Position numbers and translations under genes: made by a program. A DNA stretch of 64,000 nucleotides from Candidatus Hodarchaeota archaeon (lineage in GTDB: Archaea; Asgardarchaeota; Lokiarchaeia; Sigyniarchaeales; SOKP01). Below the pieces are notes generated by a model. That model had not been told where the DNA came from and made no database searches. It saw only the letters and a list, made by a program, of their open reading frames with translations. The stretch lies in assembly GCA_048886685.1 (NCBI GenBank), contig JBHLKM010000020.1, positions 11,301 to 75,300 on the forward strand, read 5' to 3'. Shown piece after piece: positions 128-31,480 of the stretch. How positions within the stretch are numbered: the stretch's first letter is position 1; each line of letters begins with the position of its first letter.

Positions 128-2365
128 TTAAATTTCCTCCTCATTTTTAATTTTAGCTTTCTCAATTTTTTCAGCATCCTTTAGCTGGATGTATTCTAAA
201 TCTAAATCTTTTATTTGGTTTTCTCTATTATCTTTAATTAACTGCTCTCGAGAGTTTACTAAGATCTGTTTAGTCTTTTTGGTTTTCCGAACTTTTTTCT
301 TTAATTTTCTTATTTTTCTAACCAATGGGGGGTATTTAAAGTGCGTTTGATATAGAGTAAATATAAGAACTAAACCTAAGATTGCACCAATTAACAGATA
401 TATTAACCAACCTAAATCAGGTTGAGTTCCAGGTACATAGGCTCCTACATTTAAAGTTATTTCAAAATCCTCAAATTCATAATCTTCACCTACAAATCCT
501 GATACCGTTATTGTATAGAGACCTTCTGGCGGATTTTCTATTATTCCTTCATATACTCCATTGGTTTCAGTTAAAACCCTAGGAATAGGATCTCTATCCC
601 AAGTGTATGTAACAATAGCTCCCTTTATTAATTCATCATTATCAGTATCATTTAATATAATCTCTAATTGAGCATTATCTCCCACATCAATATTAATGGT
701 GGATTCTCCAGAGACAGTAGTGATCTCTGTATTTATTTTTCTTACCGTAATAGTTGGATTGATAAGTTTAGTTTGATAATTTGTTTTTGTAGCTTCAATA
801 TTCAAATAATTATCTCCCATACTCAGTTGTTGAGTTACATTGATTGTAATTGAATAATTATCCTCAAATTCTTCCAAACTTTCTAGAATTCCCACTCCAG
901 TTAATTGAATCACTGCTCCGGGTATATGAAAACCTGTTTGATTTGTATATTTTGCAGTTATAGTTAGATTTTGGCCAATAGGAACAGTAATAGAAGTCCT
1001 GTTTTCACCATTTAAAAATAATTGTAAAGCAGTTTGATAATCAGCAAATTCTATGGTATAAGAGATATTAAGATAAACTTCATCTATTGAAATTTTAATA
1101 GTACGATTTAATTTGAAATCATCAGCTATATATAATTGAATTGAAAGATTAATATTTTTATCTTCTTCTATTAAATATGTAATATCAAAACCTCCAGATT
1201 TAGCCTCTTGATAGAATGTATTGGCTTTTTCTAATAAATTAATGGATTCTGAGTGTTTAATACCATTAATAAAAATTTGTATTTCAGAATTTGGACTTAA
1301 ATTTGTCCAAGTATCATTAGTTTTATATTTAAAATTGAGAATTGCTTCATCTACAATGGTAATATTGCTAATTTCATTAATATCATTAGGTTTTGCTGTA
1401 TCCTGATTCCAAGAAATTGAAGTAAGTTGATCAATCTTTTTCTCATAAGTAAATGTTAGATTTATATAGTTGATCACTAGAGATTCCCAAAAATCATCAT
1501 CACTGTTCCAGTTATCTTCACACCAAATTCTTATTCCTAGTGTTACTGTGAAATTATAATTGTCATTATTTAAAACTGAAGTAAGAAAAAAAATTAGGCT
1601 TTCTTTTGGAACTATGAGCATGTCGGTATCATATAAATAGTCCATATCACCAGCCGAATCGTTTCCTAAACTAGTGGTTTGATAATAACCAATTTCATAT
1701 ATTTTATTCTTCTCTAAATCAGAAATCATGACGTAATATCTTACATAATCATAAGTTGCATATTGGGTTCCACCTTCCACATCATCATCAACAGCTTCTA
1801 CTCCTTCGGAAGCTCCATCATCTGCTTTTACCGTTCCATTAACTACAGCCCTTAAAGAAGCGGAAGTTATAATATAATCTGACATATTAACTGGCATTGT
1901 AATATTTTGATCCCAGTGAACACTTGGAGATTGATCAGCACCTTCACTCCAATGGTGATAAACTTCGCATCCTTTTTCATTGATTCCATATGTATCAGGA
2001 AAGAATGGAAAAGCTGGATTTTCAACATCAGTCCAATTTGCATCCAAGGGAGGATCTGCTACTAATGAAAATGTTTGTTTGTCTCCAAACACTTCAAAAT
2101 TTGCCTCACCTCCACTAATTTCTGCATCTACATCATCTGGATCTCCTAATTCTCCTTTATGTGATGTCCAATTCTCTGTAGATGAAAAGGAAGGATTTGC
2201 CATCCATGGCTTAAGATAAGATTCTTGTGCTGAGGTTTTAATTTGTTTTGAATTAATCAGATCTTTAGAATTATTTTCTAGGTTTAAGGAATAGAAACTT
2301 AAAAATCCAGAAAAAATAATACATATTAATATCATATAACTAGTTATCTTCTTATTTTTAATCAT
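128..2365 (-). CDS. Membrane-anchored cell-surface protein (N-terminal signal/TM, acidic beta-rich ectodomain, C-terminal TM and basic tail)
   Basis: 745-aa ORF with hydrophobic N-terminus, many N-x-S/T sequons and Ig-like segments. TM LGWLIYLLIGAILGLVLIFTLY is followed by KYPPLVRKIRKLKKKV. Confidence 0.8.
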   Translation of the reverse strand: MIKNKKITSYMILICIIFSGFLSFYSLNLENNSKDLINSKQIKTSAQESYLKPWMANPSFSSTENWTSHKGELGDPDDVDAEISGGEANFEVFGDKQTFSLVADPPLDANWTDVENPAFPFFPDTYGINEKGCEVYHHWSEGADQSPSVHWDQNITMPVNMSDYIITSASLRAVVNGTVKADDGASEGVEAVDDDVEGGTQYATYDYVRYYVMISDLEKNKIYEIGYYQTTSLGNDSAGDMDYLYDTDMLIVPKESLIFFLTSVLNNDNYNFTVTLGIRIWCEDNWNSDDDFWESLVINYINLTFTYEKKIDQLTSISWNQDTAKPNDINEISNITIVDEAILNFKYKTNDTWTNLSPNSEIQIFINGIKHSESINLLEKANTFYQEAKSGGFDITYLIEEDKNINLSIQLYIADDFKLNRTIKISIDEVYLNISYTIEFADYQTALQLFLNGENRTSITVPIGQNLTITAKYTNQTGFHIPGAVIQLTGVGILESLEEFEDNYSITINVTQQLSMGDNYLNIEATKTNYQTKLINPTITVRKINTEITTVSGESTINIDVGDNAQLEIILNDTDNDELIKGAIVTYTWDRDPIPRVLTETNGVYEGIIENPPEGLYTITVSGFVGEDYEFEDFEITLNVGAYVPGTQPDLGWLIYLLIGAILGLVLIFTLYQTHFKYPPLVRKIRKLKKKVRKTKKTKQILVNSREQLIKDNRENQIKDLDLEYIQLKDAEKIEKAKIKNEEEI

Positions 2366-2574
2366 TTTTAATCATCGACAGGATAAATTTAATCTAATAG
2401 ATTTCTGTGTATTTCTTATCACTTCTAAATAATTCAAATAAGAAATAAAACAGAGTTAGGATTATAATGAAAATATAATGTATAAAAATCTTTTTTTGTT
2501 TTTTATTGAGTATTTAAATTTTAATTAAATTGAAATTTTAAATATTTAAGTGATATCCCATGCAGATAACTGTG

Positions 2575-3396
2575 CTAGATGGGACTTTTTACAAATCCAC
2601 CATCAACTTGTATTACTGTTCCGGTGATATAACTAGCCTTAGCAGAAGCTAGAAAGACTACTACATTTGCTAACTCCTCAGGTTTTCCTAACCGACCTAA
2701 GGGTATTGTGTCTATCCAAGTTTTTTCTGCTTCATTAAAAGATTTTCCTGTGTCTTGCGCTGTTTTATTGATTAATTCTTTCATCCTGTCTGTAAGTGTT
2801 GGTCCAGGGCAAACCACATTCACTAATATATTATCTTTAGCATACACATTTGCGAGAGTCTTAGCAAAACCCACTACACCTAAACGAGTAGTATTTGATA
2901 AAACTAAATTATCTAATGGTTGTTTCACTGAAACTGAAGTAATTGCGATTATTTTTCCATAATGTTGCTGTCTCATAATTGGAACAACTAAATCAGTTAT
3001 TTTAATGAAAGAAAGTAGGTTCAAATCTATTGAGTTTGCCCAATCTTCTTTTTTTATTTTTTCTAGGGGGGCAGATGGTGGACCTCCAGCATTATGAATT
3101 AAGATATCTATTCTACCAAATTCATTTAAAGTCTTTTCTACTAGACTTTTTATCTGGTCTTCATGCATCAAATCGGTTACGATAGGTACAACCCTCGCTT
3201 TTTTGTTGATTGAATTAATATCTTCTATATTTTCCTTAGCCTTCTTTAAATTTGCAACAGAGCGACTGCAAATAACAATATTTGCTCCTTCTTCATAAAG
3301 CCCTTTAGCGCAAGCTAATCCTAAACCTTTACTCGACGCTAAGACTAATGCAACCTTGCCCTTTAAGCCCATATCCATTTTTTTTTCCCACACCAT
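2575..3396 (-). CDS. Short-chain dehydrogenase/reductase (3-oxoacyl-ACP reductase-like)
   Basis: ASSKGLG nucleotide-binding motif, HNAGGP, VNVVCPG, YITG..IQVDGG. The catalytic YxxxK position reads SNTTR, as in an atypical SDR subgroup. Confidence 0.9.
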   Translation of the reverse strand: MVWEKKMDMGLKGKVALVLASSKGLGLACAKGLYEEGANIVICSRSVANLKKAKENIEDINSINKKARVVPIVTDLMHEDQIKSLVEKTLNEFGRIDILIHNAGGPPSAPLEKIKKEDWANSIDLNLLSFIKITDLVVPIMRQQHYGKIIAITSVSVKQPLDNLVLSNTTRLGVVGFAKTLANVYAKDNILVNVVCPGPTLTDRMKELINKTAQDTGKSFNEAEKTWIDTIPLGRLGKPEELANVVVFLASAKASYITGTVIQVDGGFVKSPI

Positions 3397-27135: not shown

Positions 27136-29958
27136 TCACTCCATAAATTCATATTTAATCTTTAAAGTAACTATGACATGAGGTTTTAATTCTATTTCAA
27201 GATTGTTCCGAGTTAAATTAGTTATTTCTGCTTTAATATTATTCTTAGGTTTCTCTTCAAGAAAATTAACTATTTCGGCATTTTCAATCAAGATTTTCTC
27301 ATAAAAAGCTAATCTTGCATTTTGAGATTTAGATGAAATATTATAAATTCTAATAATAATAAAATTTCCTTCCTCTGCTTTTTTCAGGGCACTTAATAAA
27401 ATACATTTATTATCTATTTCAAGAAACCGTAAGAAGGGAGGAAGATAAGACTCAATTTGGCTTGTTTTAGATCTACCAAAGTAGGAAACCATACCTGTTG
27501 GGTTTAACATAACTTTATTAGAAGTTCTAATAGCGCTTTGAGCCATTGCGGGAAACATTGGTTTTAATGTATTTATAAATTCTTTTGCTCTTAGATGAAT
27601 ATTTGAATCTAACCAGCTTGATTTAGATTCTGTAGTAACCGATATTTCAAAAGTATGGGTACCCAAACATTGTGCTCCTGGAGTTTTATAACCAGGACCT
27701 GCATGAGACTTTCTTGTACTGAAATCATCACGAGACAACCATTCAATACAGCGCAGAAGAGTTATAGCAAAAGTTATTGTTTTATCCTCATTAACGATTG
27801 CTTCATATTCTGGCAATCCAATATTTAATATAGCAAATGTTCTTAAATTGTCGCTGATTGACACAAAATCTTTTTGATGATTAGTAGGTAAAGGATTTTG
27901 AACCCAATTATCTGCTTTAGGTAATTCAACATTTCTGGGTACAACATAAAAATGACCATCAGCATGAACTACATCAGCTTTTATCTTAGTTGGGAATAAT
28001 ACACGAATTCTGTGATCTCGACTGTTATTTTCAATTATAATTTTAAAATCTATTCTCTTGATAGTTTTATATAGTGATATATAAACAGTTATTCTATTGT
28101 CAACCAACCAATCTTCTCTATTATATCGATCCTCTGTAAGAGAATGAGGAAGCTTTAGGTTTAACCTCAATTTGAAGGTTTTTTGAGATGGACCATCTAT
28201 ATACACAGATTTCTCAAAGAGAGCAGCGTCTTCAGTTGAGAATCTTAAATCTGTCTGATTCTCTTTTGGACCAGAAAAATCGTATTCATCCCCCCAATCT
28301 CCCACATCTTCGAATTCACATATTTTTTCATATATAATTCCCGTTTCCTTATCTTTAACGTTAATTAGACCATCTGATTTAATTTCAACAAGATAAAATT
28401 CATTTTCTAAGAATTCTTTACTAATTCTAAATTCTTCAGTCTTGGGATTAAAAGAGCTCTCAGACACTGTAGGAACCAGATAATAAACCCTATAACCTAA
28501 TGCGGGAACATCAGCTAGAAATGAGATTTTATGGCTAACTCCTAGCTTTCGTGTAAATCTTGGTTGTTCTTCAACAAGCCAATATTGAAATTCAATTTCT
28601 TCTTCATTAAAGTCAATTAATTTAATATTAAAGGGTAATTTTTCACCTTTTGTTCTTTTGGAGATGAAAGTAAACTCTACTCTATCTTGTCTTTTCCATG
28701 GAAGTGGATTAAAAACAATTAAAACATTACGATCTTCATAATTGGAATTAAGATTAACAAGTTCAGTTAAGTATAAAAATGAGTTTTTAAATACTTCTTC
28801 ACCTATTTGTTCTGCCCAATCAAAACGAGTTTTCATCTCATCATGAACCTCATCTATACTACAACCGCAAATACTATCATGTGGTGAATTTTTTTGCAAC
28901 CATTTTAGACCAGTTAAAATATAATTCTTTGGATATCTGAAATTTCCATATTTATCGAGTACCAAACTCATAGTTGATATTGGTTCAGTATATTTCTCAT
29001 ATAAATACTCTATTGCGGTATTTCTTTGTTTTATCCACATCCGTGCTGAAAGTACGCCAGACAAGAGAGGTGAGTATCTTCCTCCTCTCAATTCGCCTTG
29101 ATATTCTTTCAACTCGGCATTTGATTCCAGTACTTTATTAATATAATATTCAAAGTCTGCTTGCTCTAAATGAGTGTCAGGATATAATTTATTCCATTGA
29201 TCGATTATCATTGGAATTTCTGGGGTAACTTCTTCATGATCTACTCCATTATTTAATAGAACGTTAGGTGTTGCGACGTATTTCTCAAAATTTAATACAA
29301 GATTTTTTATTCTTCTCATTGCTGGTTTGAATTCTCCTTTTACAGTTTTTGTATTCAAATATGCTAGATTATGATAAGTTAAAATTAGATGTATTCCTAA
29401 TACAGATGCCGCATTACCAGGAGCATTCCATATAAATTCCATGTTTAAATTATTTTCTTCAAATTCATTACCAAATCCTCGCATAAATAATATTGAGGGA
29501 ATTTCACATCCACTTATTATCTGAGGTAATTGTGCAATGTGTCCAAAAGGATCCGGTATATATCCTGCTTTCATAACCTTACCGAATTTCCTGCTAATTT
29601 GATGTCCAATCATAATATTCCTAATTAAAGATTCACCACTAACAAGAAATTCATCAGGTAGTACATACATAGGACCAATTGAAAGCCTTCCTTCTTTAAC
29701 ATATTTTTTAATTTCCTCTTCTCGCTCTGGTCTTACTTCTAAATAGTCTTCGAGTATAATAGTTTGTCCATCGAATGTGAAGCTTTTATAATCCGGATTG
29801 GTTTTTAGGATCTTTAATAATTTATCCATCATAATCACAAGCCTAGCTCTAAATTCTTGAAATGGGAGGTACCAATCATGCTTTACATGTCAATCGTATA
29901 AAGTTTCACGGTCCCAATGTGTTTCTGGCACAATTATGATGTTCTTAGACGTAACCAT
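27136..29958 (-). CDS. GH38 alpha-mannosidase, two exons: join(29958..29905, 29874..27136), 930 aa
   Basis: DGQ, PDEFLVSGESLIRN, PDPFGH, NGVDH, HDSICGCSID. The missing N-terminal metal-binding motif THWDREWY is rebuilt by removing 29875..29904. Confidence 0.9.
29875..29904 (-). other. 30-nt bulge-helix-bulge intron candidate in mRNA
   Basis: ACUUUAUACGAUUGACAUGUAAAGCAUGAU. Central helix CGUG/CAUG, 3-nt bulges AAA and AUU, inner stem CUUUAUA/UGUAAAG. Contains in-frame UGA at 29892-29890. Confidence 0.85.
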
Positions 29959-30136
29959 AATATTATCAAAACTATTTATTATCTAAAATTGTTTAATTAT
30001 TCAATTGTAATTCTTGTTAGTTTAAATTATTTCTTCTCAGTGCTTATTATTGACAAGATTTAAATCTCTTAATCGGTAATCTAATAATTCTTCTCTCTAT
30101 TATGATTTATTTAAGTATATATTCTAATGATAAATA

Positions 30137-31315
30137 ATGGGCACAAAATACACTACTTTACAACTAATAAACGATCTTGAGAAAGGATTAGGTGGATTAT
30201 CTCAAGCCAGTACGTTATTGGGATTTGGTTCAACTTATTTATCTGATTTAAAGCAAAGAATAACAAATTCAAATGTTAAAGGTTATAATCCAAAATATAA
30301 GTTCTCACTAAGTAATTTAAATGTTTTTAAAGAAAACTTAGAAAGAAATATTGGAGAAAAAGGTGATTTTTGCTTATTTATGATAAATAAATATAGTAAA
30401 TGTAATAATGACTTAAAGCATTATTCAAGACAACAATATAGATCTACTCTCAATCCTAATTATTTTAAGAGAATTGATACTCTCGAAAAGGCTTATTGGT
30501 TAGGATTTTTATATGCAGATGGTGAAATAAGAAATAAGTATAAAGAAAAATACTGGTATAGAATTTCTGTAGAACTCTCAGTCAAAGATAGAGATCATCT
30601 TGAAAATTTTTGTAGAGCCATTGGTCTAATCCCTGCTGAATTAATAAAGGAAAGAGAAAGATATAAAAAATATAATAATAAAATAAAGAAATATCGAATG
30701 GCATATGTACGATTCAGATGTAAACCAATGGTTAAGGATTTATTGAATATTGGCTTTTCAAGTTCAAAAACATTAAAGAAATCAATCCCCAAAATATTTA
30801 AAAAAAGTAATGATTCAACTTTTGGTAGGAAATTATCATTAGCATGGCTCCTTGGCTATTATGATGGTGATGGGAATTCGAATAGTACAAGAATTACTTC
30901 ATCTAGTAAAAATCTTCTAAATGAAATTAAGTCTGAATTTAATATTAAATTCGATGTTAAACAACAGTATGATAAAGGTGAAAAATCTCGTCTTGATGGT
31001 GTAATATCCACAAAACCTCATTGGAGATTAACATTGGGAGCATCTTTATTTAATGAGATGATTCAAAATTATCAAGATAGTATGAAAAGAAAGAGAAGAA
31101 TATTTAAAGAGAAAGATATGGTATCATATAACCGCTTGAAAAAGAAAGTGTTAAATAAAGAAAATTTACAATATTTAGTTGGTACATATAAGATTATTTC
31201 ATTAATAAAGAGATTTGATGTCTCTACAACTACTTTTTATCGCTTATGCAAAGAATGGAATATAAATACACCAAAAATGCGGAATCTAACTAAAAAAAAA
31301 ATAGAACTTTGCTAG
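30137..31315 (+). CDS. Free-standing double-motif LAGLIDADG homing-endonuclease-like protein
   Basis: Two motifs, AYWLGFLYADG and AWLLGYYDGDG; very basic; possible HTH segments at both termini. No intein termini. Confidence 0.88.
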   Translation: MGTKYTTLQLINDLEKGLGGLSQASTLLGFGSTYLSDLKQRITNSNVKGYNPKYKFSLSNLNVFKENLERNIGEKGDFCLFMINKYSKCNNDLKHYSRQQYRSTLNPNYFKRIDTLEKAYWLGFLYADGEIRNKYKEKYWYRISVELSVKDRDHLENFCRAIGLIPAELIKERERYKKYNNKIKKYRMAYVRFRCKPMVKDLLNIGFSSSKTLKKSIPKIFKKSNDSTFGRKLSLAWLLGYYDGDGNSNSTRITSSSKNLLNEIKSEFNIKFDVKQQYDKGEKSRLDGVISTKPHWRLTLGASLFNEMIQNYQDSMKRKRRIFKEKDMVSYNRLKKKVLNKENLQYLVGTYKIISLIKRFDVSTTTFYRLCKEWNINTPKMRNLTKKKIELC

Positions 31316-31480
31316 TTCCTTCTCGATCTCAATGAGTTTCAGGAACAAGGATAATGTTATTCGCTTTCATAATATAGAGTTTTTAATTGAAAATCCTAAT
31401 TGAGATTATAAAAGAATACTTTAATAAAAATCAATTGGATCCTCTGCAAAACTGAAAAGAATAAAGTAATTATTTTTATT

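Follow-up and report, generated by a model that had tools for sequence, protein, structure and literature searches.

A homing endonuclease gene inserted together with a surrogate exon and a mini-intron into a mannosidase gene of a Lokiarchaeia archaeon

The mannosidase locus and its insertion

We analysed a 64,000-nt stretch of contig JBHLKM010000020.1 from an archaeon of the class Lokiarchaeia (Candidatus Hodarchaeota archaeon, assembly GCA_048886685.1), below called the window. The subject of the analysis is a LAGLIDADG homing endonuclease gene (HEG) that lies head-to-head with a GH38 mannosidase gene containing a 30-nt mini-intron of the bulge-helix-bulge (BHB) type. The window is AT-rich (G+C about 30%). 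The source genome, labelled G000, comprises 4.4 Mb in 47 contigs, and the relatives of its proteins bear the names Lokiarchaeota or Promethearchaeota; other G-numbers denote related genomes. The following features were delineated at the locus.

31320..31370, minus strand: E1a, the displaced ancestral exon 1 of the mannosidase gene, now a pseudo-exon, recognized by alignment to HEG-less relatives
31316..31319: left edge of the insertion; four bases that separate the HEG stop codon from the E1a remnant
30137..31315, plus strand: intact LAGLIDADG HEG, 392 aa
29959..30136: AT-rich cassette spacer, 178 nt
29905..29958, minus strand: E1b, the surrogate exon 1, 18 codons with HWDRE at the end
29875..29904, minus strand: BHB mini-intron, 30 nt, with an in-frame TGA inside
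27136..29874, minus strand: mannosidase exon 2 (GH38), 912 codons and a stop; host gene and right flank of the insertion

The mannosidase gene starts with ATG at 29958 (minus strand), and after the 30-nt insert the reading continues with WYLPF at 29874. The head-to-head arrangement reported in the first-pass annotation of this DNA is confirmed, with an intact open reading frame (ORF) at 30137..31315 and a 178-nt spacer at 29959..30136. The distance from the HEG to the intron, given there as about 230 nt, is 233 nt, and position 29875, at which the annotated region began, is the last base of the intron. The HEG had also been called free-standing. This is correct in that the ORF itself is not enclosed in an intein or intron, but it lies inside a 1,445-bp insertion bounded by an exon-1 remnant.

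The HEG-less genomes G003, G017, G011 and G005 are collinear with the window at about 80% identity, over the upstream phosphodiesterase gene, the intergenic region and exon 1 of the mannosidase gene. The alignment breaks off at 31320, where their exon 1 ends, and restarts at 29874 in exon 2. Position 31320, four bases from the HEG stop codon, completes the Glu codon directly before the HWDRE|WY junction. Therefore 31370..31320 is the original exon 1; in G000 its ATG is at 31370 and a TGA replaces the Trp codon (TGG). Relative to G003, the insertion covers 31319..29875, and the antisense HEG, the 178-nt spacer, the surrogate exon 1 and the mini-intron form a single insertion at the intron site. 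E1b is the exon actually joined to the remainder of the mannosidase gene. The identity of the spacer among G000, G004 and sequence LAZR01011029 (LAZR) is 79-91%, and that of the flanks is 55-72%. The spacer presumably holds divergent promoters for the HEG and the surrogate exon.

E1a remnants abut the 3' end of the HEG at four loci. They are complete in G000, G004 and G121, the last belonging to a different genus, and only the last ~18 nt are left in LAZR. All four carry Arg codons of the intron-less type and none reads GACCGTGAA, the sequence read by all 17 intron-bearing exons described below. This indicates that the recipients of the insertion were intron-less.

One could suppose that the 1,445 nt between E1a and exon 2 are spliced out as one long HEG-containing BHB intron, similar to the introns of crenarchaeal rRNA. 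Indeed, the insertion fills exactly the intron position, and archaeal rRNA BHB introns carry LAGLIDADG genes, such as those of I-DmoI and I-Tsp061I, which are among the fold matches of the enzyme considered here. However, the E1a of G000 is interrupted by an in-frame stop, that of LAZR is decayed, and three genomes of genus g22 have lost it by deletion. Moreover, E1a has no CGUG that could form the central helix, and the HEG is antisense to the host transcript. As E1a is decayed and lacks the helix-forming codon, we rejected the single long intron, which is the least probable of the alternatives considered.

In the HEG-bearing sequence Ga0209986_10000706 (L054 2200-2260, minus strand), E1b has no in-frame ATG, GTG or TTG after the preceding stop. 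This mannosidase gene either uses a non-canonical start or is inactive.

The mini-intron and the endonuclease

A pattern scan over 159 genomes of the class found the insert at the HWDRE|WY codons in 15 genomes from three genera of one family. Two metagenome contigs, added separately, also carry it, which yields 17 sequences in all. The insert always occurs at the same site, immediately after GACCGTGAA, and always has the length of 30 nt.

A hand-drawn BHB model with a 4-bp central helix, 3-nt bulges and a 9-bp intron stem was tested on the 17 aligned sequences. In the alignment 94.5% of the cells are paired, and the stem contains six compensatory pairs. Pairing in the central helix CGUG/CAUG reaches 98.5%; 3 nt form the 5' bulge and 3-4 nt the 3' bulge. 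None of 500 shuffles reached the observed values, except for further pair types (1 of 500), and in slid controls 29-57% of the cells were paired. If each bulge is cut behind its second base, 29904..29875 is excised precisely, and the HWDRE-WY of 68 intron-less alleles is regained. By structure and covariation the insert is a BHB intron, which would be spliced out in vivo.

The G000 genome encodes two EndA-family genes and RtcB. The EndA-family genes are separate (G000:C18:52942-53166 and G000:C5:74654-74902), which suggests a splicing endonuclease of the heteromeric type. Enzymes of this type have been reported to accept relaxed BHB substrates (PMC5829648).

Alternatively, the insert could be disabling, and the mannosidase would then be a pseudogene or be translated from the GTG at 29838. 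The in-frame stop in the insert and the 900-aa ORF that begins after it agree with the absence of splicing. We consider this highly improbable, as the length of exactly 30 nt is kept in all 17 sequences, the stem shows compensatory changes, exon 1 is open and conserved, and exon 2 is intact. Further, all intron-bearing alleles have CGT as the Arg codon, which the helix requires, and a protein starting at 29838 would lose the HWDRE metal-binding motif.

The HEG has an ATG start and a TAG stop. Its protein matches Pfam LAGLIDADG_3 with E 1.5e-6, above the curated cut-off. There are two LAGLIDADG motifs, around residues 122-129 and 238-246, and their acidic residues, D128 and D245, are conserved without exception in 34 homologues. 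A sequence search against solved structures (PDB) gave no match for the protein. In the AlphaFold model (mean pLDDT 88), a helical domain at the N-terminus and a helix-turn-helix-like domain at the C-terminus flank a double alpha-beta-beta-alpha-beta-beta-alpha core. Foldseek matched the model to I-AniI, I-SceI, I-DmoI and PI-PfuI at probability 1.00, with a TM-score of up to 0.63 normalized to I-DmoI. By motif, profile and modelled fold, the product of 30137..31315 is a single-chain, two-motif LAGLIDADG homing endonuclease, predicted to cleave DNA.

The ratio of nonsynonymous to synonymous substitutions (omega) in the HEG is 0.15-0.28, which corresponds to purifying selection. The gene is intact in G000, LAZR, Ga0209986 and G121, and is a pseudogene with two premature stops in G004. 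The combination of purifying selection with the premature stops in G004 fits the usual cycle of invasion and decay.

Distribution, movement and recurrence

HEG orthologues, defined by at least 55% identity, were found in 6 of the 133 genomes of the family (G000, G004, G110, G121, G122, G142), always at the same site. Together with two metagenome contigs these give eight HEG loci; the metagenomic orthologues P0002-P0008 were left outside this count. All eight orthologues adjoin an intron-bearing mannosidase allele, and no allele with the HEG and without the intron was observed among the eight loci. Conversely, none of the at least 68 genomes with an intron-less allele has a HEG orthologue; weaker members of the HEG family are present in such genomes, on other contigs. 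The HEG is nested within the intron-bearing set. No probability was assigned to the nested pattern because the genomes are related. The first-pass annotation had proposed the co-occurrence of the intron and the endonuclease in related genomes as a check. The dependence holds in one direction: the HEG was seen only beside the intron, but the intron occurs alone in nine genomes.

The G107 bin holds both junction types, at G107:C76:8884-8942 and G107:C261:21-61, one intron-bearing and one intron-less. This could be a population polymorphism, a paralogue or contamination of the bin.

The ages of the cassette and its flanks were compared using synonymous divergence (dS). Between G000 and G004, the HEG has a dS of 0.36 and E1b one of 0.10, as against 1.6-1.9 for mannosidase exon 2 and 1.28 for the phosphodiesterase gene upstream. 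The nucleotide identity of the same two genomes is 83-91% from ~29774 to 31160 and 55-72% in the mannosidase body and past the HEG stop. E1b is identical in 52 of 54 nt, E1a in 38 of 51. In the maximum-likelihood tree of the mannosidase body, G000 is the sister of the intron-less G003 (100/99), and G004 belongs to the other deep clade (100/100), in which the remaining five members have no intron. A young cassette in old flanks and the separate deep clades of the host alleles show that the cassette with its intron moved between diverged backgrounds. Thus the suggestion of the first-pass annotation that the HEG and the intron spread together agrees with the G000/G004 comparison, by which the two did move jointly. 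The same contrast in age between the cassette and the flanks is seen in LAZR.

These data bear also on the possibility that the LAGLIDADG protein has been domesticated and, being no longer a mobile nuclease, serves as a regulator of the divergent mannosidase gene or as a splicing helper. The head-to-head arrangement, the additional helix-turn-helix-like domains and the purifying selection would be expected of such a protein. On the other hand, the gene is present in just six genomes of the family and is a pseudogene in one of them, the cassette is young in old flanks, and both catalytic Asp residues are retained. The splicing of BHB introns requires no maturase, which counts against a helper. 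Domestication thus seems very unlikely.

The G004 locus is a multi-parent mosaic. The 5' 350 nt of its mannosidase gene resemble alleles of the G006/G007 type, and the remainder falls in another clade. A co-conversion tract of ~300 nt from a G000-like donor into exon 2 of G004 was considered and rejected, since exon-2 codons 19-118 have a dS of 1.6 between G000 and G004; in these codons G004 is nearer to the G006/G007-type alleles than to G000.

Paralogous HEGs are associated with interrupted genes other than the mannosidase gene. In 10 of the 133 family genomes the P-loop codons of the EF-1alpha gene (GH-I/V-DHG|K-ST) are split by an insert of 31-33 nt. The loci are L075 2750-2860 (G117:C57), L017/L080 (G004:C31), L074, L078, L079, L082, L084 and L086. 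Paralogous HEGs with 34-45% identity lie 100-250 nt upstream of EF-1alpha on the same strand, and a HEG paralogue or its decayed remnant is directly upstream in eight of the ten genomes. Full-length matches occur in G004, G086, G117, G143 and G141 (in the latter in two pieces), and fragments only in G001, G114 and G145. RNAalifold, applied unaided to the EF-1alpha insert, produced the canonical helix-bulge-helix-bulge-helix structure with compensatory pairs. The EF-1alpha gene of G000 itself is intron-less.

In G112:C32 (L076 ~700-2690, minus strand), an aIF2gamma-like gene with an HhH N-terminal extension contains an insert of ~28 nt right after GHVDHG, the P-loop position that is also split in EF-1alpha, and a paralogous LAGLIDADG gene of 490 aa is located immediately upstream. 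Judging by these predicted genes and inserts, the arrangement of a HEG with a mini-intron recurs at EF-1alpha and apparently at aIF2gamma.

The HEG family has more than 30 loci in Lokiarchaeia. Yet another member was found in G022:C7 (L006 ~1500-2700), just upstream of an aIF5B-like gene with an uninterrupted P-loop. This may be an intein, a different arrangement, or an intron-free cassette.

Proposed homing cycle and related systems

We believe that the endonuclease is probably the motor of a composite 1,445-bp mobile cassette, inserted exactly between the HWDRE and WY codons of the GH38 gene. The enzyme would cut alleles without the intron, at the HWDRE|WY junction or close to it, a site deduced from the boundary of the insertion, and repair off a cassette-bearing allele would copy the entire insertion. 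The exon 1 of the recipient would then be stranded beside the HEG stop codon and decay. The surrogate exon with its upstream region would restore the coding sequence and keep the gene expressed. The target site would thereby be regenerated, and the mini-intron would split it in the DNA, with the host EndA and RtcB rejoining the message. Later decay or deletion of the HEG would leave intron-only alleles immune to the enzyme. One clean route of HEG loss could be recombination between E1a and E1b, which would produce exactly the allele of the G017 type.

This reading, collaborative homing, was put forward in the first-pass annotation, and it is supported by the comparative data. The element had been described there as two-part. 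It has three parts, as the surrogate exon 1 with its upstream region is also carried, and the intron can persist after the HEG is lost. Further, adjacency had been named as the only direct evidence; to it are now added the insertion boundary with the exon remnants, the age of the cassette, and the recurrence at EF-1alpha and apparently at aIF2gamma.

Several observations weigh against collaborative homing. The exon-exon helix of the BHB structure is weak and short (a relaxed form), and the 3' bulge has either 3 or 4 nt, depending on how it is drawn. Folded as a single sequence, the intron region has an energy no better than that of shuffles (z = 0.19); such folding is uninformative here, and the BHB structure rests on covariation. 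The target site is deduced only from the insertion boundary. Three copies in genus g22 have neither the C-terminal domain of the HEG nor the E1a remnant, that edge having been lost, and the cassette of this genus is not clearly younger than its flanks, so that vertical descent with loss explains g22 equally well. A displaced exon remnant was sought upstream of the EF-1alpha HEG in G004, and none was found. Finally, 9 of the 15 intron-bearing genomes have neither a HEG within 1.5 kb nor an orthologue elsewhere, and the intron could be older and independent. The contig of G131 is too short to judge the absence of the HEG.

Introns without a HEG would be expected if the intron were a hitch-hiker, that is, if the HEG targeted another sequence, such as the start codon or the upstream region, and an older unrelated intron some 230 nt away were co-converted. 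Moreover, free-standing HEGs of phages are described as often cutting at a distance of tens to hundreds of bases from where they are inserted (PMC2790892, PMC2988022). However, the edge of the insertion coincides with the intron site to the base, and the exon remnants left stranded are intron-less in type. In addition, none of the eight HEG loci is intron-minus, and paralogous HEGs are paired with mini-introns in two more genes. We therefore regard hitch-hiking as unlikely, although it is the strongest competitor of collaborative homing.

The closest analogue is the MobA endonuclease of T4-like phages with the 50-nt translational-bypass insert of gene 60 (Bonocora et al. 2011 PNAS, via bioRxiv 10.1101/2022.08.31.505936). 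As far as this system is described in the latter text, both cases combine a free-standing HEG, a surrogate stretch of host coding sequence and a short non-coding insert in one cassette, which moves as a unit into a highly conserved enzyme gene. In both the insert is protein-neutral and shields (here, by our reading, would shield) its carrier from the cassette's own nuclease, and the HEG is often a pseudogene. The differences are that the insert in the archaeal gene would be removed from RNA by the tRNA-splicing machinery of the host, whereas in gene 60 it is skipped by the ribosome; that the enzyme is a LAGLIDADG rather than an HNH endonuclease; and that the host is a cellular Asgard archaeon rather than a phage. 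For MobA, protection and cleavage are reported there to have been shown by experiment, whereas here they are predicted.

Collaborative homing has been described for free-standing HEGs and ORF-less group I introns. As in those pairs, the HEG is outside the intron, the putative target is the intron insertion site, and the intron would give immunity and be mobilized in trans. Unlike them, the intron is a protein-spliced BHB element of 30 nt and not a self-splicing ribozyme, and the cassette carries a duplicate exon and is placed at the intron site itself. The rRNA BHB introns encoding I-DmoI and I-Tsp061I resemble our case in the enzyme fold, in the type of intron and in that the site of homing is conserved. 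However, their HEGs are inside the intron in the sense orientation, whereas here the HEG is antisense and outside the 30-nt intron, with the surrogate exon between them.

The pre-mRNA intron of crenarchaeal cbf5 is also a BHB intron in an archaeal coding sequence with lineage-specific gain and loss. The available text on it (PMC2738675) describes no endonuclease partner, exon duplication or horizontal movement, and the phylum and the host genes are different. In the searchable literature, cbf5 is the only archaeal protein gene described as having a tRNA-type intron, and a search for BHB introns in protein genes of Asgard archaea returned nothing relevant. In the mitochondria of the fungus Tremella fuciformis, intron/HEG insertions are reported to create N-terminal gene duplications and partial replacement of genes by foreign sequence (PMC8393795). 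There, too, according to the available text, the element brings a foreign copy of a gene end and the original is left as a remnant. However, those are organellar group I introns, and no BHB intron is involved.

Against this background, the displaced exon pins the insertion to the junction, the contrast in dS demonstrates movement, and the recurrence at EF-1alpha is observed within one family. The locus offers a concrete and testable route by which introns of the tRNA type may enter archaeal coding sequence. We lean slightly towards a general class of such cassettes in Lokiarchaeia, each consisting of a LAGLIDADG gene, a surrogate 5' exon and a BHB mini-intron. They would invade conserved catalytic motifs in the first ~20 codons (GH38 HWDRE|WY and the P-loops of EF-1alpha and aIF2gamma), and leave host-spliced introns after the decay of the HEG. 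If so, the cassettes would provide a working mechanism by which protein genes of the closest archaeal relatives of eukaryotes gain introns. The strategy of phage T4 gene 60 would then be a general one, used in Asgard archaea in at least three host genes with another remedy at the RNA level. It would also explain why annotation pipelines truncate such genes, and the enzymes would represent new long-target nucleases with defined natural sites.

Some neighbouring genes may be mentioned in addition. The sole HEG paralogue in G000 (C16:73828-74616; L002 1324-2310; 39% identity, ~328 aa) is located between a JAB/MPN-like gene and a response-regulator gene, and no interrupted neighbour was seen. On the far side of the HEG, Ga0209986_10000706 has different neighbours, an unknown ORF of 243 aa and a Ras-like GTPase gene. 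In G004 an additional DUF3604 gene of 720 aa (G004:C9, L022 9679-11841), absent from G000, is situated between the exon remnant and the phosphodiesterase gene.

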